A stretch of 9,701 nt of DNA from a virus. Taxonomy: Duplodnaviria; Heunggongvirae; Uroviricota; Caudoviricetes. Below the pieces are notes generated by a model. The model searched no databases. It was not told where the DNA came from and saw only the letters and a list, made by a program, of their open reading frames with translations. Both the position numbers and the translations under genes were made by a program. Location of the stretch: the IMG/VR virus record IMGVR_UViG_2703719365_000027, positions 1 to 9,701 of that record; one strand, given 5' to 3'. Shown piece by piece: positions 1 to 9,701 of the stretch (within the stretch, counting starts at the first letter, position 1; every line of letters begins with the position of its first letter).

Positions 1-948
1 TCACTCTCCTTTGATGCGAATGCCAGCAAGCCAGTTTCTTATGCCGATATATTCAGCGTTCCTGAAACCGCTTTTTACATATATAAATGGCAAGCGAAGA
101 TTGTGACCATTGACTGCCAGGTAGTCTTTACAACCCTGTTCGGTGAAACAGCAGGTAACGAATTCATCAATATCTTTCACAGCAACGCGCCGCCATTTTT
201 CTGGTGGCTCTCGAAAGTTTTCATGAAGTAGCTCGAGACGACGACTATGGCGTTTATTGGCTTCATTGCCATCTTCGTCAACCCAGACAATCCGGTCATG
301 GTCATAATCAGCATCAACAACGATTTCGCGCTTTTGATACACACAAAACATGGGATCTGACGTTATTCGATTGTCCTGTGTTCGAATATTTTCACCGATG
401 ATGCCAAACGAATCTGGTGCAGATTTTGTCTGCATCTCTTCGATACGTTCAGCCATCGCAGCACACTCTTCAAAGTTGCTTAATGCTTTTCGCTCCCATT
501 CGGCGCATTGTTTTTCCAGTTCTGCTATGCGCTTACTTCCATCCGCGATTACTCCCTCGTAATATTCACGCTGCTCGTTGAGTTTTGATTTTGCTGCTTC
601 AAGCTCAACGCGCAGCTTCCCTACCGTAAGCGCAATATCCTCGTTCTCCTGGTCGCGGCGTTTGATGTATTGCTGGTTTCTTTCCCGTTCATCCAGAAGC
701 GCCAGCGCAACATTTGGATTAAAGGCAGCAATAAATTCAGCGTTTGCGTAAGCCTGAGCATCTGTTTCAACCAGGCAGTTAACATGACATTCTGCAATCA
801 CGCCACCGGGTTCTCCTTTCCATTTTTGACAAACAAAAACTCCTGTTATATTCCCATGCTGATTGCCCGATGTATGCCCTACGATGTAGCATCCTTTAGT
901 TGCTTTCTCTGCTGCTTCACGCAGCGCCTGATAGTCAATCTCGCTCAT
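1..948 (-). CDS. Ea22-like (ead/Ea22 family) prophage early protein, 315 aa
   Basis: Complete minus-strand ORF with ATG at 948 and TGA at 1-3. N-terminus MSEIDYQALREAAEKAT resembles the conserved N-terminal signature of ead/Ea22-like prophage proteins (from memory). Central coiled-coil-like charged region. ATGA start/stop overlap with the upstream ORF at 945-948. Confidence 0.6.
   Translation of the reverse strand: MSEIDYQALREAAEKATKGCYIVGHTSGNQHGNITGVFVCQKWKGEPGGVIAECHVNCLVETDAQAYANAEFIAAFNPNVALALLDERERNQQYIKRRDQENEDIALTVGKLRVELEAAKSKLNEQREYYEGVIADGSKRIAELEKQCAEWERKALSNFEECAAMAERIEEMQTKSAPDSFGIIGENIRTQDNRITSDPMFCVYQKREIVVDADYDHDRIVWVDEDGNEANKRHSRRLELLHENFREPPEKWRRVAVKDIDEFVTCCFTEQGCKDYLAVNGHNLRLPFIYVKSGFRNAEYIGIRNWLAGIRIKGE
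4..29. repeat. 26-bp repeat CTCTCCTTTGATGCGAATGCCAGCAA (copy A) at the 3' end of the Ea22-like gene
   Basis: 25 of 26 identical to 1751-1776. Encodes the C-terminal AGIRIKGE and the AAAGGAGAG ribosome-binding site for the next gene. Confidence 0.7.
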
Positions 949-1121
949 TCATCGCCCCACTCATCACAATATGCTTCGACCGCAGTTTTCCCTGCTTCAT
1001 AATCATCACGCCATGCTTCAGCATCAGCGGCACTTCCACCGCGTAACTCTGCATAATCCATTAACAGTTCATGCCATTCTTCAAAACTGGCGTTATATTT
1101 AGTTGAACCAAAATCAGCCAT
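945..1121 (-). CDS. small highly acidic hypothetical protein, 58 aa (MADFGSTKYN...)
   Basis: ATG at 1121 is preceded by GAGGAAGGA at good spacing. The track start at 1139 has no Shine-Dalgarno. 16 Asp/Glu versus 4 Lys/Arg. Stop overlaps the Ea22-like start (ATGA). Confidence 0.45.
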   Translation of the reverse strand: MADFGSTKYNASFEEWHELLMDYAELRGGSAADAEAWRDDYEAGKTAVEAYCDEWGDE

Positions 1122-1296
1122 TTTGTCCTTCCTCTTCATCTTTTATTTCGTGGTATGAGTAATTGCAGTGGTTAAAGAAAATTCCTTTTGCTTCGTCATG
1201 AATTTCATCAGGTGTTGCGTCATCATCTACTTCGAATACATCCTCAAAATCTCCACCAGCTATTCCCGTTTCAATAATTATTTTGAATTTTCGCAT
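1114..1296 (-). CDS. small highly acidic hypothetical protein, 60 aa
   Basis: ATG at 1296, TGA at 1114-1116, overlapping the next start by 8 nt (ATGGCTGA). 17 Asp/Glu versus 5 Lys/Arg. No strong Shine-Dalgarno, so confidence is modest. Confidence 0.4.
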   Translation of the reverse strand: MRKFKIIIETGIAGGDFEDVFEVDDDATPDEIHDEAKGIFFNHCNYSYHEIKDEEEGQNG

Positions 1297-1389
1297 TTCA
1301 CTACCGCCATTTCGAACGGCCTCCTGATGTTCTGAGGGTGCAGAAATCCCTCCGGTTAAGGATTAAATTTTTAACAGTGCTAAATTTAA

Positions 1390-1746
1390 TTATTCAGTTC
1401 TTGATTTTGCCGCCCTGCGTATCCGCGCTTTCGCGTTACGCTCAATCTGAATTAGCTTTTCTATATTTTTCCGCCTTTCCTGTTCCTCCTGTCGCAATAG
1501 CCTTACGTCATCTGCCAGTCTGGTTTCTCTTTTCGCCACAGAGAGCATCCAGTCAAACGGCTCCACAACTGCACCGCAGATTTTACAACGGACCTGACGC
1601 TCTTTTTCGTCAACCCGGACAGAGGCGTGATGACAATATGGTCTTTCCGATGGCTCATAAAGAAAATTAACCTGATTACGTGGGTCATCCTCTTTTACCG
1701 GAAATAAAACAATATTACTTAACTCATCTTCTGGTTTGATTTCCAT
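1390..1746 (-). CDS. hypothetical zinc-ribbon-like protein with basic coiled-coil tail, 118 aa
   Basis: ATG at 1746 is preceded by AAAGGAGAGGAG. The track start at 1779 is GTG with no Shine-Dalgarno. Cys/His cluster (CHH ... CKIC) followed by an Arg/Lys/Glu-rich C-terminus. Start overlaps the upstream ORF by 23 nt. Confidence 0.5.
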   Translation of the reverse strand: MEIKPEDELSNIVLFPVKEDDPRNQVNFLYEPSERPYCHHASVRVDEKERQVRCKICGAVVEPFDWMLSVAKRETRLADDVRLLRQEEQERRKNIEKLIQIERNAKARIRRAAKSRTE

Positions 1747-2188
1747 GCTCCTCTCCTTTGATGCGAATACCAGCAACACGTAGTACGTGCTCTAAATCAG
1801 CCAGATAAATCCAGCAGCCATTTTCTTTAGGTATCATGACGTGGCGCTCATCAGCATTTATCGGATGTCCATATCGAAGGCCGTAGCGAGTCGGTAAATG
1901 AACTTCCCGCGCTTCCAGCTCTTTAACGCGCTCCTCGAGTGCGTAGACTCTGCATTGTTCTTCATCATCAATCAGATATAACCCTAGACATTCGCTTTCT
2001 ACCCAGCCACCGAAATCATGATCGTAACGCTCACACGAAAACTCACCATCGCTGTCCTTTGTTGGAATGGTGTAACTGTCTAATGGGCCACCATACGTCG
2101 GTACATTTCCCAATTTCGGATGCTCAATCCACATGAAAAATGCACGTCCGGTTATTGGGCAAATATCTGGTCGCCATTGGTTACTCAC
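1724..2188 (-). CDS. hypothetical protein whose C-terminus resembles the Ea22-like C-terminal module (DUF551-like, tentative), about 154 aa
   Basis: ORF open from 2215. I prefer GTG at 2188 because AGGAGG lies 6 nt upstream. C-terminal ...VAGIRIKGE is shared with the Ea22-like ORF (...LAGIRIKGE), and a YDHD motif is also shared. Confidence 0.5.
   Translation of the reverse strand: MSNQWRPDICPITGRAFFMWIEHPKLGNVPTYGGPLDSYTIPTKDSDGEFSCERYDHDFGGWVESECLGLYLIDDEEQCRVYALEERVKELEAREVHLPTRYGLRYGHPINADERHVMIPKENGCWIYLADLEHVLRVAGIRIKGEEHGNQTRR
1751..1776. repeat. 26-bp repeat (copy B) at the 3' end of the 1724-2188 gene
   Basis: 25 of 26 identical to 4-29. Identity stops abruptly on both sides. Confidence 0.7.
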
Positions 2189-2480
2189 TGTTTGCCTCCT
2201 GGAAAATAACTGCATGCCCCAGCTTCTCCGCCAGTGCCAGTTCTGCCTTAGCGCCTGCCGACCGCTGCCAGCCTTTCAGCATGTAAATCGCATCCACGCA
2301 GCGTATCATTGACATGCAAATATCCATGTAGTGCGGCTGTGTCAGCCCGTCCGGAAGTACTGCCGGGTTTAAGACTGTATGCCCTTCCCGTTTCAGTTCC
2401 TCTTCCGCCTTGTGGAACGCCTCACGGTTGAAATTTTTATACCCGGTCATCGGACCGGCGATATAAACCCTCACCCTCAC
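2181..2480 (-). CDS. DUF4406-type protein (nucleoside 2-deoxyribosyltransferase-like fold), 99 aa
   Basis: GTG start at 2480 with AGGAGGTGA 5 nt upstream. GTGA overlap with the upstream stop. N-terminal VYIAGPMTGY...N motif is typical of the deoxyribosyltransferase-like/DUF4406 family (from memory). Confidence 0.55.
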   Translation of the reverse strand: MRVRVYIAGPMTGYKNFNREAFHKAEEELKREGHTVLNPAVLPDGLTQPHYMDICMSMIRCVDAIYMLKGWQRSAGAKAELALAEKLGHAVIFQEANSE

Positions 2481-2869
2481 TCCATCACCTCCTGAAAATT
2501 ACCCCGATAGAACGCCAGCACACGCTGCATAACTTCGCTCTGGCGGCACTCACGACAAATTATGTTCTGCCGTCTGTTGTAACGACGTATTTCTCCGTCA
2601 GGTAACTTTCGAATCAGTGTCGGGTCAGCAGCCTTCTCCGGTGTCTTACGCCATACGCGATACGCCTGCTCTGATAGAAATACCCCGCAACCAGAGAGCC
2701 AGACATCACCACTGGCCGCAAGCGCACCAGATAAACGACGAATAGCGGTCTTACTGACACCCGTTTTATCTGCCAGTTGTCGAAAAGTTTCTCGTCCGCT
2801 CAGGCGCACGAATTCCACAATGCGCGCCCTCACTTCTTCCCGCTCTTCTGGTGTAAATACTTTTGCCAT
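2477..2869 (-). CDS. hypothetical protein with probable winged-helix segment, 130 aa
   Basis: ATG at 2869 with GGAGG 5 nt upstream. The track start at 2884 is TTG. Segment FRQLADKTGVSKTAIRRL is HTH-like. Cys pair CRECRQ. Confidence 0.5.
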   Translation of the reverse strand: MAKVFTPEEREEVRARIVEFVRLSGRETFRQLADKTGVSKTAIRRLSGALAASGDVWLSGCGVFLSEQAYRVWRKTPEKAADPTLIRKLPDGEIRRYNRRQNIICRECRQSEVMQRVLAFYRGNFQEVME

Positions 2870-2884
2870 AAGCGCCTCCGGCAA

Positions 2885-3655
2885 TCACTTTTCCGACACA
2901 ATACGACCGGATGAATCGACAATCTGCCGAACAATATCCCGGTGCTTGTTCAGCTCCCGCAGCGCGGCGCAGACACGCTCCCACTTCTGAACCTGACCTT
3001 TTGCCCGGCGCAGCTCGCGGTTTGCCATTTGCAGCGATGGTAAAATCAGGTCATTGGCTCGCGTTTCAGTGAACGATGGTAGTAACTGCACAATGTCCCC
3101 CACAGTATCTGTTTTAATTTCTTCCTGTGTTGCCGCTTCCCGGACTGGTAACGCAGCACCTGCTGGCTGAGGAAAGGCCTTACCATCACTTTCCGTTACC
3201 AGCGCGGCTTTCGGCTCTGCTGGTAAATTATCGCCCGGCATGCAGTAACGAAATCCACCGTTCTGATTAACGCGTGCCAGCCGCCCCGTTGCGGTTACCA
3301 CCGCCAGCGTGGAAGCAACCTTGCGAGTACTGACACCGAACTTACCCGCTATTTCTTCACAGGTTTTAGCCCCCTCCTGAGCGATAAACTCAATCATCAT
3401 GTTAGCGCTAACTTTTGGAGCGACCTCTTCGGTCAGCATATTCTGTGTTTCAGATTTTACTGGCCGCTCTTCGGTTACCCGGGATTCACCTTCGACAGCC
3501 AGAAACCAGGTGTGACCCGTTTTATCAACAACGCCATTTTTTTTGAGCTCCCACAGTTCGTTCAGCACTTCTTCACGACTGATATCAAGTCGAGCAGCAA
3601 GTTCTATGGATGTGGCTTTTCCCATTGCTTTCAGTGCGTCAAAAACAGTCTCCAT
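2885..3655 (-). CDS. phage-associated winged-helix DNA-binding protein (DUF1627-like, tentative), 256 aa
   Basis: ATG at 3655 with GGGAGA upstream. The track start at 3688 is TTG. N-terminal ~60 aa look like a winged helix ([28 protein letters not shown]); a second HTH-like stretch sits mid-protein; C-terminus is coiled-coil. Immediately downstream of the DnaC-like gene. Confidence 0.5.
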
Positions 3656-3677
3656 TAAATTTTTCTCCCGGTAAAAA

Positions 3678-4424
3678 TTACTTCGCAATTCCTAGCTGGA
3701 CGACATTCGGACGCCAGCTCTCCCAGTTAAAATTCACCCATCGCCCGCCGTTCATGGTCATGCGATCCATAATCCGCTCGCCGAGCAATGTTTTCATGGC
3801 CTCATAGTTCAGGTTTGTCAGCATCCCCACGCTGCGCATCGAAGCTGTCCGGCGATCAACAATCTGGTGCAGTACCACCTGCTCGTTTTTCGTCTCACGC
3901 TGGATGCCAATTTCGTCAAGAACCAGGAGGTCCACTTCGCACAGTTCACGCAAAAATTTTTCGCCTGACTGCCCGTCGTCATAGCTGGCGTGCAGGGCGC
4001 TCATAACATCAGCCACGGTAACCACAATCACTGTCTGACCGTCTTTCAGCAGGCGATTCCCGATAGCTGCCGCTAAGTGATTCTTCCCGGTACCAGGTTT
4101 TCCGCTGAACGCAAAATTTGTATACCCAGTCATCAGTTCATCAGCGATGGATTTCGCCTGGCTTAACGCGTATCGCTGGCCGTCGTTCTGCACCTGGTAA
4201 TTCGCAAACGAGCATTTACGGTGCAACGGCTGGATGCCAGAGCGATTCAGAATTTTTTCCACCCGCAACTGACGATTCAGACGGTTGATCTCCTCGCAAC
4301 GTTTCTGGCCTTCAGTAAGTTGCCACTCACGCCACTCCGCAACCGTTCTGAATGGGGCGGTTACATGTGGTGGGGTCAGTCTGCGGATACGCTCCAGAAC
4401 GCCGCCTGTCGCAATATTTTTCAT
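3678..4424 (-). CDS. DnaC/IstB-like AAA+ helicase loader, 248 aa
   Basis: Walker [12 protein letters not shown] and Walker B LLVLDEIG. Size and motifs fit phage DnaC-like loaders. Sits directly downstream of the replication initiator gene. Confidence 0.85.
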
Positions 4425-4430
4425 GGTCTG

Positions 4431-5219
4431 TTACCCCCTGAAGCCTGGCGGGATCGCACTGTCCGGCAACGAGACGGTGTTAACCTGTCGGAGCAACGTC
4501 TCAGGCCGAACACCTTTCGGTGCGAACAAGCCCTGGTATTCATTGGCGATGCTGTGTCGAATCACCTGCTCAGGTGTAAAACCCTGCTGACGGAATTTTT
4601 CCAGTTCCCGTATCGCCCCGTTAGCGCCCTGCTCCGTTCGAATCGGTTTTCGCAATGCCTGCCTGAACTGAACCCACTCATGCCAGAGTGTTTCCGGCAA
4701 CCAGTCAGGCAGCTCGATAGCCTCCGGCTCGAATTTTTTAGACGCTCGTTTTTGGCGAGGGGGATTTAGGGGGAGATCAGTATTTATATCTTCCTCTTCC
4801 TCTTCCTCTGGTAACGCTTTTTGATCCGTTTGTGTAACGCTGGCAGCGTTACCTTTTCGTTTCAGTTCGCGTATTTTTGTAACTCGCTCGTTTGTAACCG
4901 CCCGTTTTTTAGAGCTTTTCCCGTTATGACGTTCAAAGTTAGGTAGAGAAAGCCCACCGTCATTTTCGACCAGCCATCCAACCTGAATTAACGCATCAGC
5001 AAAACCAGCCATAAAAGTGATGCGATCTATTGCACTTTTTGTAACGCCGCGAGCGTTACAATCTGCATTACCGTCTATCATTTGTTGATCCGCCCATGCC
5101 CAGAAGCGAATAACCTTCCCTAATGCGGCATCTGGATCAATATTCAGAATCTCAGCAAGCCTGAATATTTCCGGCTTATCCGGCGTAATAACCTCGAGCT
5201 TTATCCAGTTTGAAGCCAT
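4431..5219 (-). CDS. phage replication initiation/primosomal protein (C-terminal region DnaT-like, tentative), 262 aa
   Basis: ATG at 5219 with AAGGTGA upstream. Sits ahead of the DnaC-like gene as in lambdoid replication modules. Internal poly-Glu linker (EEEEEED). The gene body carries palindromic repeats (see repeat features). Confidence 0.6.
   Translation of the reverse strand: MASNWIKLEVITPDKPEIFRLAEILNIDPDAALGKVIRFWAWADQQMIDGNADCNARGVTKSAIDRITFMAGFADALIQVGWLVENDGGLSLPNFERHNGKSSKKRAVTNERVTKIRELKRKGNAASVTQTDQKALPEEEEEEDINTDLPLNPPRQKRASKKFEPEAIELPDWLPETLWHEWVQFRQALRKPIRTEQGANGAIRELEKFRQQGFTPEQVIRHSIANEYQGLFAPKGVRPETLLRQVNTVSLPDSAIPPGFRG
4834..4852. repeat. 19-bp palindrome GTAACGCT-GGC-AGCGTTAC (copy 1), with extra half-site GGTAACGCT at 4810-4818
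   Basis: Perfect 8-bp arms. Lies inside the replication initiator coding sequence. Confidence 0.7.
5041..5059. repeat. 19-bp palindrome GTAACGC-CGCGA-GCGTTAC (copy 2)
   Basis: 7-bp perfect arms. Lies inside the replication initiator coding sequence. Confidence 0.65.
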
Positions 5220-5232
5220 TTGTTTTCACCTT

Positions 5233-5251
5233 GTAACGCTCGCAGCGTTAC
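5233..5251. repeat. 19-bp palindrome GTAACGCT-CGC-AGCGTTAC (copy 3)
   Basis: Perfect 8-bp arms. Intergenic, 14 bp upstream of the replication initiator start codon, directly abutting its ribosome-binding site. Confidence 0.7.
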
Positions 5252-5296
5252 ATTTAACTGATACCGAACAAAACAATCCGGCACGATTAATTTCAA

Positions 5297-5719
5297 TCAA
5301 TGCACTACGACAGAATCGCCGGGCGACCCACCACCGCTGAAATGTGCTTTCCGGTAAACGGCCTGGACTGCATCATCATGCGCATCAATTGCCGTACTCA
5401 ACGCTTCCTGCGCCGCCAGTAATGCACGGCGTTCCAGGGTATCGAAGATGCAGAGTCGGTGACGCAGCTCGCGCGGAATAATTGCCAGAACCGCAGGGAT
5501 CAGTTTCTGAATTTTTTCCCTTTGCGCTTTCGTTTCACCTTTCAACCAACGGTGATAGATATTCTGCTGATTGTTCCAGTCCTTGCCTGGTACAAGGGGC
5601 AATTCGCCGCCCCCCTGGCGCAGATATTCTTCAGTAATTGCGTTAGCGACCCACGCCTGCCCTTTTTCGGCTGCCAGGGCTAACAACACTGATTCGATGT
5701 GCTCATGCCTGATTTTCAT
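5297..5719 (-). CDS. CII-like regulator, YdaT-family candidate, 140 aa
   Basis: ATGA overlap with the Cro-like gene stop (5716-5719), implying translational coupling. Second gene of the rightward-equivalent operon, same size as Rac YdaT (from memory). Confidence 0.5.
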   Translation of the reverse strand: MKIRHEHIESVLLALAAEKGQAWVANAITEEYLRQGGGELPLVPGKDWNNQQNIYHRWLKGETKAQREKIQKLIPAVLAIIPRELRHRLCIFDTLERRALLAAQEALSTAIDAHDDAVQAVYRKAHFSGGGSPGDSVVVH

Positions 5720-5958
5720 GAATCAACCGCTCCTATGCTGTTTTCGCTATGCTTACCGTCTGGGGGGAATACATCGTCAAGTCCACAATGAGCGCCAAGC
5801 CGATTAAGGGTAGAAACAATTTTTCTGCACTCCTCTAGTCCAGGGGTACGAAAATTTGCTTCGTAATTTGCCAGTCGGCTTTGTATCCACCCTAACTGAA
5901 CAGCAAGTTGTCTTTGAGACAGCCCAAGCTGTTTTCGATATGTTGAAATTTTGTTCAT
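5716..5958 (-). CDS. Cro-like XRE-family HTH regulator, 80 aa
   Basis: ATG at 5958 with GGAGG 6 nt upstream. HTH LGLSQRQLAVQLGWIQSRLANYEA. Divergent from the repressor gene across a 96-bp operator region. Confidence 0.7.
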   Translation of the reverse strand: MNKISTYRKQLGLSQRQLAVQLGWIQSRLANYEANFRTPGLEECRKIVSTLNRLGAHCGLDDVFPPDGKHSENSIGAVDS

Positions 5959-5978
5959 TGAAAACCTCCGATGACAAT

Positions 5979-6007
5979 TTTAAACACATCCTGTGTTATA
6001 TGGTCAA
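5979..6007 (-). promoter_or_regulatory. candidate PR-like sigma70 promoter for the Cro-like operon (TTGACC-17 bp-TTTAAA)
   Basis: Reading the minus strand: -35 TTGACC (plus 6002-6007), 17-bp spacer containing the AACACA-N3-TGTGTT operator, -10 TTTAAA (plus 5979-5984). The resulting leader is short (~14 nt). Confidence 0.4.
5983..5997. promoter_or_regulatory. operator-like inverted repeat AACACA-TCC-TGTGTT
   Basis: Perfect 6-bp arms with a 3-bp spacer inside the divergent intergenic region. The same motif family recurs at the rightward early promoter (6559-6573 and 6582-6596). Confidence 0.5.
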
Positions 6008-6029
6008 GCTGTTTTGTGTTTTATGTAAA

Positions 6030-6042
6030 TCACGATTCGTGA
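6030..6042. promoter_or_regulatory. perfect 13-bp palindrome TCACGA-T-TCGTGA just upstream of the repressor ribosome-binding site
   Basis: Seen directly. It is a different motif from the AACACA/TGTGTT sites, so it may bind a second regulator. Confidence 0.4.
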
Positions 6043-6054
6043 TACAAGGATGCA

Positions 6055-6474
6055 ATGGAAAAAGAAAACGAAAAAATTGCCGCTAGTAGGCTCAATGACA
6101 AAATTGCAATGCGTCTTAAAGAGCGCAGGCAGAAGCTTGGTTTATCTCAAGGAAAACTTGCTGAAATCTGCGGATGGACGCAATCGCGTATAGGTAACTA
6201 TGAGGCGGGCAGCAGAAATGTTGGAGTGCATGACGCTGTCGTATTGGGAAAGGCACTTGGCATATCTCCTCCTGAGCTCCTCTTTGGAGAACAGGAATCT
6301 TCTGAATTGTGGTTAAATGAATCCCAACGAAAACTTCTTGAGTTGTTTAACCAGCTACCGGGCTCAGAACAACAACGAATGATTGAGCTATTTGAAGTCC
6401 GGCTAAAAGAAATCGATGAGTATGTAGAAAAATATTTGAGAGGCAGGCTTAAAGATAATCCCCTACCGGAGTAA
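6055..6474 (+). CDS. prophage repressor, XRE/cI-like HTH without peptidase domain (RacR/DicA-type), 139 aa
   Basis: ATG at 6055 with AAGGA upstream. HTH LGLSQGKLAEICGWTQSRIGNYEA. No S24 peptidase Ser/Lys motif and too short to carry one. Divergent from the Cro-like gene and followed by an intrinsic terminator. Confidence 0.8.
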   Translation: MEKENEKIAASRLNDKIAMRLKERRQKLGLSQGKLAEICGWTQSRIGNYEAGSRNVGVHDAVVLGKALGISPPELLFGEQESSELWLNESQRKLLELFNQLPGSEQQRMIELFEVRLKEIDEYVEKYLRGRLKDNPLPE

Positions 6475-6503
6475 TGATCTTGCTATCACAGTAATATGCC
6501 AAT

Positions 6504-6530
6504 CAGCCCGCTATCAGCGGGCTTTTTTTG
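6504..6530 (+). terminator. intrinsic terminator after the repressor gene
   Basis: Stem AGCCCGC / GCGGGCT (7 bp) with loop TATCA, followed by TTTTTTT. Confidence 0.75.
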
Positions 6531-6558
6531 TACCATCATCATATGACACCCACCCTAA

Positions 6559-6573
6559 AACACATTTCGTGTT
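6559..6573. promoter_or_regulatory. operator-like site AACACA-TTT-CGTGTT overlapping the -35 of the rightward early promoter
   Basis: Same 6-3-6 geometry as the site at 5983-5997, with 11 of 12 arm positions matching. Confidence 0.45.
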
Positions 6574-6600
6574 GACATAAGAAAACGTATTGTGTTTAAT
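6572..6600 (+). promoter_or_regulatory. near-consensus sigma70 promoter (pL-like): TTGACA-17 bp-TTTAAT
   Basis: -35 TTGACA at 6572-6577, exact 17-bp spacer, -10 TTTAAT at 6595-6600. A second degenerate operator AAAACG-TAT-TGTGTT (6582-6596) overlaps the -10. Drives the ydaF-like to recE operon. Confidence 0.6.
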
Positions 6601-6780
6601 AAGCATATCCAAACAACGCCCCACCAGAGAACGGCAGGACAATACCTCGAGTTATCCAGCCACTGAACAGGGCTAAGTAGCCAGCCTGAGGCATACGAAC
6701 ATGACGGCAGTTGTTGATTGATACAAAGCGCAGTAGATAAAACGTTCCGCCACCCGGCGTTAAGGGGAAATGAGGTCAAC

Positions 6781-6933
6781 ATGGATACTATCGATCTTGG
6801 CAACAACGAATCTCTGGTATGTGGCGTGTTTCCCAATCAGGACGGCACATTCACCGCCATGACGTATACCAAAAGCAAATCGTTTAAAACCGAAGCTGGC
6901 GCACGTCGCTGGCTTGCCAAAAATACCAGCTAA
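6781..6933 (+). CDS. DUF1391-type small protein (YdaF/YdfA-like), 50 aa
   Basis: ATG at 6781 with GAGG 5 nt upstream. MDTIDLGNNESLV... resembles the small proteins that follow the repressor in the Rac and Qin prophages (from memory). Preceded by a ~174-nt untranslated leader. Confidence 0.6.
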   Translation: MDTIDLGNNESLVCGVFPNQDGTFTAMTYTKSKSFKTEAGARRWLAKNTS

Positions 6934-7114
6934 ACCATTTATTGGATTAATTCAATATTCTTGCTGTAGGGGTATAGCCGAGGCCACCAAAGCCCGGAGG
7001 TGGTGAAATAAAACCGGGCACAACACGAAGGCGCATTTCCGGTATCCATAAAGAGTCGGTCTTGTCTGTTAAATTTAAATGGTGGGAGTGCGCCTCCGGT
7101 TGTGAATAACAACA

Positions 7115-7178
7115 CTGCTGTGTGTAGTCTTGGCGGCATCAGTTTTTTCTTGAAGTTCGACTGATGTCCGCCCTTTTT
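7115..7178 (+). ncRNA. dicF: DicF-like small RNA candidate (5' end approximate)
   Basis: Sequence TTGGCGGCATCAGTTTT ... CCGCCCTTTTT matches the DicF 3' region as I recall it from the Qin prophage. Sits in a 420-bp ORF-free gap and ends in an intrinsic terminator. Confidence 0.5.
7132..7178 (+). terminator. intrinsic terminator (also the 3' hairpin of the DicF-like RNA)
   Basis: Stem GGCGGCATCAG / CTGATG-T-CCGCC (11 bp, one bulged T), 18-nt loop, then CTTTTT. Confidence 0.7.
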
Positions 7179-7353
7179 AAAGTGAATTTTGTGATGCGGT
7201 GAATGCGGCTAAGCGCACGCGGCACAGTTAAAAGTCATGTTAGTCCTTATTGGTTTGGGTGGGAAAGCCGACTGTAATTGTTAACTGGTTGCAGTCACCT
7301 GGAGGCACCAGGCACCGCATCAACAAAGTTCATTTGTAAAAATGGAGATAATT

Positions 7354-7575
7354 ATGATTGCACATCACTTCGGAACTGATGAAATACCACGTCAGTGTGT
7401 GACTCCTGGTGATTATGTTCTTCATGAAGGCCGGACATATATCGCCTCGGCAAACAATATTAAAAAACGAAAACTTTATATTCGTAACCTGACCACAAAA
7501 ACATGCATTTCTGACTGCATGGTTAAAGTCTTCCTCGGTAGTGATGGTTTACCTGTAAAAGCGGAGTCATGGTGA
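7354..7575 (+). CDS. kilR: KilR, Rac-prophage FtsZ-targeting cell-division inhibitor, 73 aa
   Basis: ATG at 7354 with GGAG 6 nt upstream. [46 protein letters not shown]... matches KilR as I recall it. Position ahead of ydaE-racC-recE is as in Rac. Confidence 0.75.
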
Positions 7576-7745
7576 TGGATAAGAAAATAAAATGTGCTTA
7601 CCACCTTTGCAAAAAAGACGTTGAAGAAAGCAAAACTATTGAAAGAATGCTTCATTTCATGCACGGAACTTTATCAAAAGACGAACCGAGAAAATATTGC
7701 AGTGAAACTTGTGCCGAAAAAAACCAGATGGCACACGAACTTTAA
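7575..7745 (+). CDS. ydaE: YdaE-like small zinc-binding protein, 56 aa (absent from the ORF track, below its length cutoff)
   Basis: ATG at 7575 overlaps the kilR stop (TGATG), with GGAG 8 nt upstream. Cys pairs CAYHLC and [24 protein letters not shown]... matches Rac YdaE as recalled. Confidence 0.6.
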   Translation: MDKKIKCAYHLCKKDVEESKTIERMLHFMHGTLSKDEPRKYCSETCAEKNQMAHEL

Positions 7746-7819
7746 TTAACTGACTATTCGAAACTGAATTTATGCCAGCAATGGCAGGGATTCACTCAAC
7801 CTTAATTAAGGAGAAAAAC

Positions 7820-8095
7820 ATGATTACCAATTATGAAGCCACTGTTGTAACTACTGATGACATTGTTCACGAGGTCAATCTGGACGGAAAGCGTATTGGC
7901 TACGTGATTAAAACAGAAAATAAAGAAACCCCATTCACTGTGGTTGATATCGACGGTCCATCAGGCAACGTTAAAACACTTCACGAAGGCGTCAAAAAAA
8001 TGTGCCTGGTGCACATTGGAAATAATCTACCAGCAGAAAAAAAAGCTGAGTTTCTGGCAACTCTGATTGCAATGAAATTAAAAGATGAAATTTAA
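7820..8095 (+). CDS. racC: RacC-like protein, 91 aa
   Basis: ATG at 7820 with AAGGAG 6 nt upstream. The track start at 7772 has no Shine-Dalgarno. Size and position immediately upstream of recE match Rac racC. Confidence 0.65.
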   Translation: MITNYEATVVTTDDIVHEVNLDGKRIGYVIKTENKETPFTVVDIDGPSGNVKTLHEGVKKMCLVHIGNNLPAEKKAEFLATLIAMKLKDEI

Positions 8096-8124
8096 AAAAA
8101 AGAAAGCCTGCACAGTGTACAGGC
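8093..8124 (-). terminator. hairpin plus U-tract oriented for minus-strand transcripts, between racC and recE
   Basis: Plus strand reads A-tract (8093-8105) then hairpin GCCTG-CACAGTGTA-CAGGC (8106-8124). On the minus strand this is a hairpin followed by UUUCUUUUUUUU. No U-run follows it on the plus strand. Confidence 0.35.
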
Positions 8125-8195
8125 CTGAGTGAAAAACCTGGGACATTTATTCATCACTCGCACTAAATTTTAATCTGAGTTGAGGTTAAAAAACA

Positions 8196-9701
8196 ATGAG
8201 CACTGACAAACAAAATTTTGCGTTACATTGCGACGCGAAAAATGAGGGCGCAAGAAAACGCCTCGGCATCAAAGGCGGCTTTTTCTGGACAGAGGCAAAA
8301 AAACTTTCTGTTGCGGTTTCACGCTGCATTGCTGCAATGGACGATGCTGGCTACGATGAAGATGACTTTAAAAAACCCGTTCGCGTAAATTTCCCCGTCG
8401 TGAATGACCTTCCACCGGAAGGCGTGTTTGATACTGAATTCTGCAACCGCTATGAAAAAGGCGGGGAAGATGGCATCACCATGATGGCTATATCCTTCAA
8501 TGACAACATCAACGGTGAAGATGCCACAACTGCTGGCGATGACAACGATGACCCGGACGGAACTATTCCGGATGATGTGGAGAAAAGCGAATCCCCGGAC
8601 AGCGACGATGACTGTTCTGAGTGTGAAATTCCCGTCGCCACTCTGAGCCTTACTCATCGCTTCCTTCACCTCTTCTTCTTCAGCAAGGATGAAGATGGAA
8701 AATACCGGCATCACGCCACACCAGAACAACGCAATAACGTGATCCGTATGGAGATGGACACAGAGGACAGTTACCTTCAGAGCCTGCTTACTGCTGTGCG
8801 CGCCGCACATCATGAACTGGATAAACTGACGAACTATCACCTTAGTCGCCTGGCTGAATCTGTAGGGAAAGCATTCCCCCACTCTGCAAATCATCGCATC
8901 AGCCCGGCTGAATTCGACAAGTTCATTTCCACCTGGATGAAAACTGACTACCTTGATCAGGGCCTGCTGACAAAAGAATGGCAGAACGGAAATTATGTTT
9001 CAGGAATTACCCGTACGCCTTCCGGTGCTAACGCTGGCGGCGGAAATATTACCGATCGTGGTGAAGGATTCAAACATGATAAGACATCACTCGCACGAGA
9101 TGTAGCCACCGGCGTTCTGGCCCGTTCAATGGATGTGGATATTTATAACCTTCATCCGGCACACGCTAAACGTGTCGAGGAAATTATCGCTGAAAATAAA
9201 CCGCCCTTTTCTGTTTTCCGCGACAAATTCATCACCATGCCTGGCGGGCTGGATTATTCCCGCGCCATCGTGGTTGCGTCCGTAAAAGAAGCACCAATTG
9301 GGATCGAGGTTATCCCTGCGCATGTCACTGAATATCTGAACAAGGTGCTGATTGAAACCGATCATGCCAACCCTGATCCGGAAATCGTGGATATTGCCTG
9401 CGGTCGTTCCTCTGCCCCGATGCCGCAGCGTGTAACAGAAGAAGGAAAACACGATGGTGAAGAAAAACCGCAACCATCTTGCGCAATGGCAGATAAACAG
9501 GCAACGGCTGAAACAGTGGAACCGGATGCAACTGAACATCATCAGGACACGCAGCCGCTGGATGCTCAGTCACAGGTAAATTCTGTTGATGCGAAATATC
9601 AGAAACTGCGGGCAGAACTCCATGAAGCCCGGAAAACCATTCCGCCCAAAAATCCTGTCGATGCCGACAAATTGCTGGCTGCCTCTCGCGGAGAATTTGT
9701 T
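8196..9701 (+). CDS. recE: RecE (exodeoxyribonuclease VIII) N-terminal and central region, 502 codons, 3' end beyond the window
   Basis: ATG at 8196 with GAGG upstream. Open frame with no stop to the window end, which is why the track omits it. Segments [32 protein letters not shown] and [66 protein letters not shown] match Rac RecE as recalled. All minus-strand ORFs in 8300-9573 are antisense artefacts. Confidence 0.8.

Follow-up and report, generated by a model that had tools for sequence, protein, structure and literature searches.

Two overlapping early genes of a Rac-like prophage encode small, strongly acidic proteins that are candidate charge-mimic inhibitors

Two conserved genes for small, strongly acidic proteins

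The Caudoviricetes record IMGVR_UViG_2703719365_000027 was analyzed over its positions 1 to 9,701 (hereafter the window), in which two very small open reading frames (ORFs), designated A and B, follow one another on the minus strand (Table 1). A first-pass annotation made from the letters alone had reported overlapping ORFs of 60 and 58 residues at 945–1296, placed them just before an Ea22-like gene, and suggested that their products are DNA mimics or anti-defence proteins. The limits of both ORFs proved exact, their overlap is the 8-nt sequence ATGGCTGA, and the TGA of B overlaps the ATG of a gene that matches Pfam Ead_Ea22 (E 3e-45). From the comparisons described below, A and B are real, conserved genes whose acidity is a selected trait and which can be carried separately, and a DNA-mimic or anti-defence role is plausible in that it is compatible with the data. 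Both genes are already annotated, one as a domain of unknown function (DUF) and the other as a PHROG family.

The composition computed for the two proteins matches the extreme acidity first noted (net charge about −12 each, about 28% Asp/Glu, few basic residues). Protein A contains 17 Asp/Glu and 5 Lys/Arg residues (28.3% Asp/Glu, isoelectric point (pI) 4.2) and protein B contains 16 and 4 (27.6% Asp/Glu, pI 4.05), which gives each a net charge of −12 and a charge per residue of −0.20, compared with −0.043 for the next most acidic protein of the window, about five times less extreme. Net charge has a median of −11 (range −16 to −6) among 31 relatives of A, reaching Yersinia and Pseudomonas, and of −10 (range −15 to +1) among 46 relatives of B; 13 columns of the A alignment and 11 of the B alignment are acidic in at least 70% of the members. 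The helical-face distribution read from the B sequence puts its acidic residues on the non-hydrophobic faces of all three predicted helices. Judged from these alignments, acidity is a selected trait of both families, and the strongly negative charge and low pI typical of DNA mimics are present in A and B and kept in both families.

Lack of conservation had been named beforehand as a refutation of the first-pass proposal; the genes turned out to be strongly conserved. The pooled ratio of nonsynonymous to synonymous substitution rates (dN/dS) across related loci is 0.056 for A (29 distinct 60-codon alleles) and 0.114 for B (39 distinct 58-codon alleles), and variable sites at codon positions 1, 2, and 3 number 3, 6, and 28 in A and 16, 22, and 49 in B. 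Repeated in the two wrong frames as an off-frame control, the calculation returned ratios of 0.99–3.8. Of 5426 complete Escherichia coli genomes, 1930 contain the 352-bp pair, which is nearly full length in 1750 of them and is annotated in RefSeq as a 'DUF7167 family protein' followed by a 'hypothetical protein'; in the Rac-like prophage of E. coli 61_150228 the pair region is 99.7% identical. Exhaustive searching of 1.84 billion representatives with HMMER found 76 relatives of B, nearly all of which are stand-alone proteins of 48–70 residues. The small size of A and B and the unusual ribosome-binding site of A in this allele could suggest chance ORFs or decaying, unexpressed remnants, but the dN/dS values with their off-frame controls, the preservation of ORF length across genera, and the 76 B relatives of nearly uniform size leave that explanation with next to no probability.

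A matches Pfam DUF7167 (PF23768) with 49 bits against a gathering cut-off of 24.4 (E 6.6e-13; residues 2–53 on profile positions 1–60) and also matches phrog_1997. Its relatives were found as far as Klebsiella, Citrobacter, Yersinia, and Pseudomonas and follow the pattern MRKFKV.IET....G....FEVEDDAT.EEI..EAK.IF.N.C.Y.Y.EI. B matches phrog_519 (E 5.7e-21; profile positions 76–137 of 143), as do all 46 of its aligned relatives, which match no other family, and it carries the motif FEEW[YH]..L...A...G.S.AD..AWR.DY.AGKTP.EAW.DEWG. The name DUF5419, given to a B relative in one phage annotation, was rejected as the family of B because Pfam does not confirm it.

Structure prediction, which the first pass had proposed, gave compact folds for both proteins but did not relate either fold to known DNA mimics. 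The AlphaFold2 monomer model of A, built from 31 sequences, has a predicted local distance difference test score (pLDDT) of 87.5 and comprises a beta-hairpin (residues 2–8 and 17–23), a helix (29–43), and an extended C-terminal segment. The corresponding model of B (pLDDT 85.9) is a three-helix bundle (13–27, 34–42, and 47–55) preceded by 12 residues of coil. Each protein is thus predicted to form one compact folded domain. Searches of PDB sequences, in which either protein alone or its family profile served as the query, returned chance-level matches only, to STING (E 0.6), ribosomal protein uL23 (E 0.05), and the ribbon-helix-helix (RHH) protein ORF56 (E 0.22). A Foldseek comparison of the B model with BFVD recovered only uncharacterised homologues, from Erwinia and Pseudomonas phages. 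Neither protein matches NCBIfam or PADLOC, a library of defence systems, and none of the general family libraries Pfam, NCBIfam, and PHROGs assigns an anti-defence annotation to A or B.

Table 1. Features of the A–B locus (window coordinates).
Feature	Coordinates	Strand	Description
ORF A	1114..1296	minus	60 residues, MRKFKIII...EEGQNG; net charge −12; DUF7167 / phrog_1997
ORF B	945..1121	minus	58 residues, MADFGSTKY...WGDE; net charge −12; phrog_519, without a Pfam family
8-nt overlap ATGGCTGA	1114..1121	minus	B start codon and A stop codon (TGA)
Shine-Dalgarno-like GAGGAAGGA	1126..1134	minus	4 nt 5′ of the B ATG, within the codons for the acidic tail of A; read from sequence
ATGA overlap	945..948	minus	B stop codon TGA and ATG of the Ead/Ea22-like gene
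Ead/Ea22-like gene	1..948	minus	3′ neighbour of B; 315 residues; Pfam Ead_Ea22 PF13935, E 3e-45
AGGAGG (1320–1325), then short hairpin (1303–1320)	1303..1325	minus	Hairpin between AGGAGG and the A ATG

Operon context and expression signals

The minus-strand operon that contains A and B starts at a cro-like YdaS gene, which is divergent from a gene for a RacR-like repressor, and continues with ydaT, an O-like gene, a ydaV/DnaC-like gene, DUF1627, DUF977 (Ren-like), DUF4406, two further ORFs, A, B, and the Ead/Ea22-like gene. The description of this operon as early was correct, with the amendment that these genes belong to the rightward cro/replication operon of a lambdoid, Rac-like prophage, not to the exo-xis (early-left) region. 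In the Shiga toxin (Stx) phage ArgO145 the A–B pair (gp15/gp14) does lie in the leftward early region, again 5′ of an Ead/Ea22 gene. On the minus strand, neither a promoter nor a terminator was detected from 800 to 1900, an Rfam scan of the window gave no match, and the 93-nt gap 5′ of A has no significant structure. These results place A and B at the distal end of a rightward early operon under repressor control, and their products would be made only after derepression or infection.

The Shine-Dalgarno-like element in the end of A and the overlap of the two genes (Table 1) accompany a translation of B that is probably coupled to that of A. A longer, 64-residue form of B could begin at the ATG at 1139, but this start is not the conserved one because homology in other contexts begins exactly at the ATG of MADF; RefSeq likewise gives 58 residues. 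For A, a strong AGGAGG lies 23 nt from the ATG, a distance that exceeds the spacing of a normal ribosome-binding site. The gap between them is filled in most alleles by the hairpin CCGCCC-GAAA-GGGCGG (−16.9 kcal/mol, z score −3.0), which would place the AGGAGG about 7 nt from the AUG, an arrangement that resembles the split ribosome-binding sites of T4 genes 38 and 25. The window allele of the hairpin is weakened (−7.8 kcal/mol, z about 0); in the alignment of this leader 93% of cells are paired, with covariation not above that of shuffled alignments. A mini-ORF of 10 codons (MAVVKCENSK; 1278–1310, minus) lies 3′ of the AGGAGG and overlaps the start of A. It was discarded as a conserved feature and is probably a by-product of the weakened hairpin, because its ATG is limited to the window allele and a few others; most alleles have AGG or AAG at that position.

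Several observations concern the surroundings of the pair. ORF A itself (1114–1296) is 36% G+C, against 45–54% in the neighboring genes, which fits a horizontally exchanged cassette. The gene 5′ of A (1390–1779, minus) encodes a basic zinc-ribbon protein of phrog_1621 with a weak match to TFIIB-type zinc ribbons; its RefSeq start lies later and yields 118 residues. One gene further 5′, a 163-residue ORF (1724–2215, minus) shares the C-terminal motif AGIRIKGE with the Ead/Ea22-like protein (1–948) and with lambda Ea22, and both window proteins match phrog_250; the operon thus holds two modules with Ea22-like C-termini. Genes 3′ of B open with the same MSEI[DN]YQ... codons (945–960 in the window; loci L001–L083) whether they are Ead/Ea22-like or belong to another family, a shared joint that mosaic modules probably use as a linker for recombination.

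Linkage of A and B and their spread across mobile elements

B follows A in all 83 loci that contain a close relative of A, with the same overlap of −8 in 82 of them, and an A allele of only 73% identity still has B next to it. The A–B unit is set among at least 15 different upstream and at least eight different downstream neighbors. In Citrobacter the DUF7167 gene is followed by an unrelated 59-residue protein, in four different neighborhoods, and a 72%-identical E. coli allele of A, together with further relatives in Yersinia, Pseudomonas, and elsewhere, likewise has neighbors other than B. Co-occurrence as an obligate module therefore fails across the divergent members and holds only among close alleles: A and B are independent gene cassettes that are often but not always carried together.

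These patterns bear on whether A and B form an obligate acidic heterodimer that is active only when both are present, with the overlap ensuring equal amounts. The constant order in close relatives, the persistence of B beside the 73%-identical A, and the retention of most of both genes in 1750 of the 1930 positive E. coli genomes would fit such a complex. It is nonetheless improbable, given the unrelated neighbors of A just described, the finding of B unaccompanied by A in Enterobacter and Salmonella, on plasmids, and in Vi01-like phages, and the expectation that two proteins of net charge −12 would repel each other. The DUF1187 protein that takes the position 5′ of B on IncI2 plasmids was considered as a distant homologue of A and rejected (hhalign probability 0.3%). 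The functional pair implied by the first-pass annotation is weakened accordingly, because A and B are separable.

Distribution differs between the two genes. A was found on only 15 plasmids, in the inspected one of which it lies inside an integrated prophage, and in only 17 phage records, those inspected being temperate and either derived from prophages or Stx-converting; A is restricted to temperate phages. B occurs without A 3′ of Ead_Ea22 genes in Enterobacter prophages and directly 3′ of the replication gene gpA in Salmonella P2-like prophages. In the latter (loci L094–L098) it stands between gpA and a variable stretch that precedes the portal gene; in L095 this stretch holds an nSTAND/AAA_16 gene, and B may border the known P2 defence hotspot in these prophages. 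A species-genome scan for B with narrow search patterns found five loci. In an alignment of five B contexts, the ATG and the stop codon mark the two limits of similarity.

B is also carried by 554 plasmids, 516 of them conjugative, and about 413 of these copies are 80–90% identical to window B. On the IncI2 plasmid inspected (CP122748.1, L108 8793–9177) it belongs to an operon of genes for a CaiF/GrlA regulator, DUF1187, B, SPFH/Band 7, and NfeD that adjoins repA; this B is 84.5% identical to that of the window, and the DUF1187–B junction is the same ATGGCTGA. Deletion of the CaiF/GrlA gene of pHNSHP45 had little effect on fitness (PMC8053102). B lies about 14 kb from the mobC/relaxase region of IncI2, gene orientation being mixed, and no literature was found on a location of B in the IncI2 leading region. 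Large MOBH plasmids also carry B, as do 196 phage records, mostly phages of about 155–160 kb like Vi01 (Ackermannviridae).

Possible functions and comparison with known systems

We tentatively read A and B as charge-mimic inhibitors, that is, as proteins that bind and block a basic surface of another protein. As separate accessory genes at the distal end of a RacR-repressed rightward early operon, they would each supply a small folded domain whose exposed surface is almost wholly carboxylate, and each would act stoichiometrically and non-catalytically by binding and blocking a positively charged surface. The most likely target would be a host protein of repair, of the nucleoid, or of defence, blocked at the surface with which it binds nucleic acids, which amounts to charge or DNA mimicry in a broad sense. 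B is present in prophages of the lambdoid and P2-like kinds, in virulent Vi01-like phages, and on conjugative plasmids, which makes it the stronger candidate of the two for blocking a barrier that faces any incoming DNA. A more specific and more doubtful proposal is that B (phrog_519) founds a family of three-helix, hyper-acidic inhibitors of 50–65 residues, which would block a conserved host DNA-binding barrier (restriction, a RecBCD-type nuclease, a nucleoid protein, or similar), with A as a second, phage-restricted inhibitor of a different target.

The conserved acidic columns, the compact predicted folds, and the cassette-like mobility in accessory hotspots favor inhibition by charge mimicry, as does the sharing of B among temperate phages, virulent phages, and conjugative plasmids, which is often seen with genes directed against a general host barrier. 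Lambdoid phages keep anti-defence genes in their recombination and accessory hotspots; one is Oad2, relatives of which can be fused to Ead/Ea22 (bioRxiv 10.64898/2026.07.10.737580), and in EVADES DNA mimics make up 11 of 268 anti-defence proteins. Several observations weigh on the other side. No sequence or fold relation of A or B to a known DNA mimic, anti-restriction protein, or anti-CRISPR was detected, and purifying selection is strong with little amino-acid change, which is not the signature of rapid evolution often seen at interfaces between inhibitors and targets. Many small phage proteins are acidic, including lambda Orf55, Ea8.5, and Ea22, though less so, and small proteins of such regions (lambda Orf63, Orf61, and Ea22) act on phage development rather than defence (PMC8614690). 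In Vi01, B stands directly 3′ of the major capsid gene, unlike an early anti-defence locus, and the separability of A and B detracts from the view of a functional pair. A literature search found no papers on DUF7167, DUF1187, DUF5419, or the B accession WP_000753052; Pfam DUF7167 and PHROG 519 have no assigned function and no mention in the searchable literature.

The alternative that deserves most attention is that A and B are accessory factors for the development of the phage or plasmid itself, which would tune replication or the lysis–lysogeny decision. We give this a probability similar to that of the inhibitor reading, both being below even, and we grade in the same way the mode it would take, namely binding of the element's own or of host replication, recombination, or transcription proteins. 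A always lies 3′ of replication genes or in an exo-xis-type region, and B comes immediately after gpA in prophages of the P2 type and after O/P or Ead_Ea22 genes in lambdoid prophages; the low dN/dS fits a conserved partner; and developmental phenotypes have been described for the neighboring families Ead/Ea22, Orf63, Orf61, and Orf73 (PMC8614690), such roles being reported for small exo-xis proteins of lambda and Stx phages. However, neither protein resembles any lambda exo-xis protein, the flanking genes vary freely, and B is also harbored by conjugative plasmid backbones and by virulent phages of the Vi01 type, for which there is no lysogeny decision to tune and replication relies on different systems.

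Far less credit attaches to two further explanations. That A and B are acidic, antitoxin-like neutralisers of a toxic basic protein encoded alongside would agree with the general behavior of small acidic proteins, which often do so, and with the frequency of toxin genes in such regions (Hok, Doc, and HicA occur in related loci), but neither side of the genes has a constant neighbor, the adjacent window proteins are acidic or near neutral, and PADLOC and NCBIfam are silent on both proteins, so that we regard it as very improbable. Still harder to credit is B as a degenerate DNA-binding regulator of the RHH type. The B profile weakly matches helix A and the G-x-S turn of ORF56 of pRN1, and the coil at the N-terminus of the B model is how an RHH strand would look in a monomer; yet the ORF56 match lacks significance, no significant profile or fold match to RHH proteins and no basic DNA-contacting strand was found, and DNA binding is incompatible with a net charge of −12 and only four basic residues. 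Antitoxin-like proteins, an RHH regulator, and non-genes jointly account for only a small part of the probability.

That a phage makes small acidic early proteins will not surprise a specialist. The new points are that these genes are real and very widespread, that their acidity is selected, that A and B are separable, and that B is common to conjugative plasmids and virulent phages, for which reason B is the better target for experiments. Roughly one in three complete E. coli genomes contains the pair, and more than 500 plasmids carry B. If B or A does inhibit defence or repair, a new, very small, and very widespread family would join the short list of charge-mimicking inhibitors, with a bearing on the establishment in new hosts of Stx phages and of IncI2-type resistance plasmids of about 60 kb. 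If phage development is tuned instead, A and B would be further examples of the numerous small early proteins encoded in accessory regions of lambdoid phages, and the finding would be an ordinary one.

Lambda and Stx phages provide the closest comparison in gene layout. The exo-xis proteins Orf60a, Orf63, Orf61, Orf73, Ea8.5, and Orf55, together with Ea22, are similarly encoded by tiny overlapping early genes beside Ead/Ea22, and the A–B pair of phage ArgO145 is located in that region. In contrast, BLASTP found no similarity between the lambda exo-xis proteins and A or B (best E 0.88), Pfam places neither A nor B in DUF1317 (Orf60a) or DUF1382 (Orf63), Orf60a and Orf61 are basic, and the window pair lies in the rightward replication operon. 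Oad2 (HK446 gp27), an inhibitor of the P2 OLD nuclease, is likewise an accessory gene of a mosaic lambdoid early region but has 175 residues; compared with the window Ead/Ea22-like protein and the 163-residue ORF, it showed no detectable similarity to either.

In their physical properties A and B are closest to the small acidic inhibitors by which phages mimic DNA, such as T7 Gp5.9, which acts against RecBCD, and phi29 p56 and PBS2 Ugi, which act against uracil-DNA glycosylase; T7 Ocr, T4 Arn, and the anti-CRISPR proteins AcrIIA4 and AcrIF2 are further examples. No relation in sequence or fold connects A or B to these inhibitors as far as was detected, A and B being known here from sequence and monomer models, whereas the likeness extends to a length of 50–120 residues, early expression, a very low pI, a charge of about −0.2 per residue, a compact build, and the lack of catalytic motifs. 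As members of DUF7167 and phrog_519, respectively, A and B would, if the inhibitor reading holds, represent new families of a known kind.

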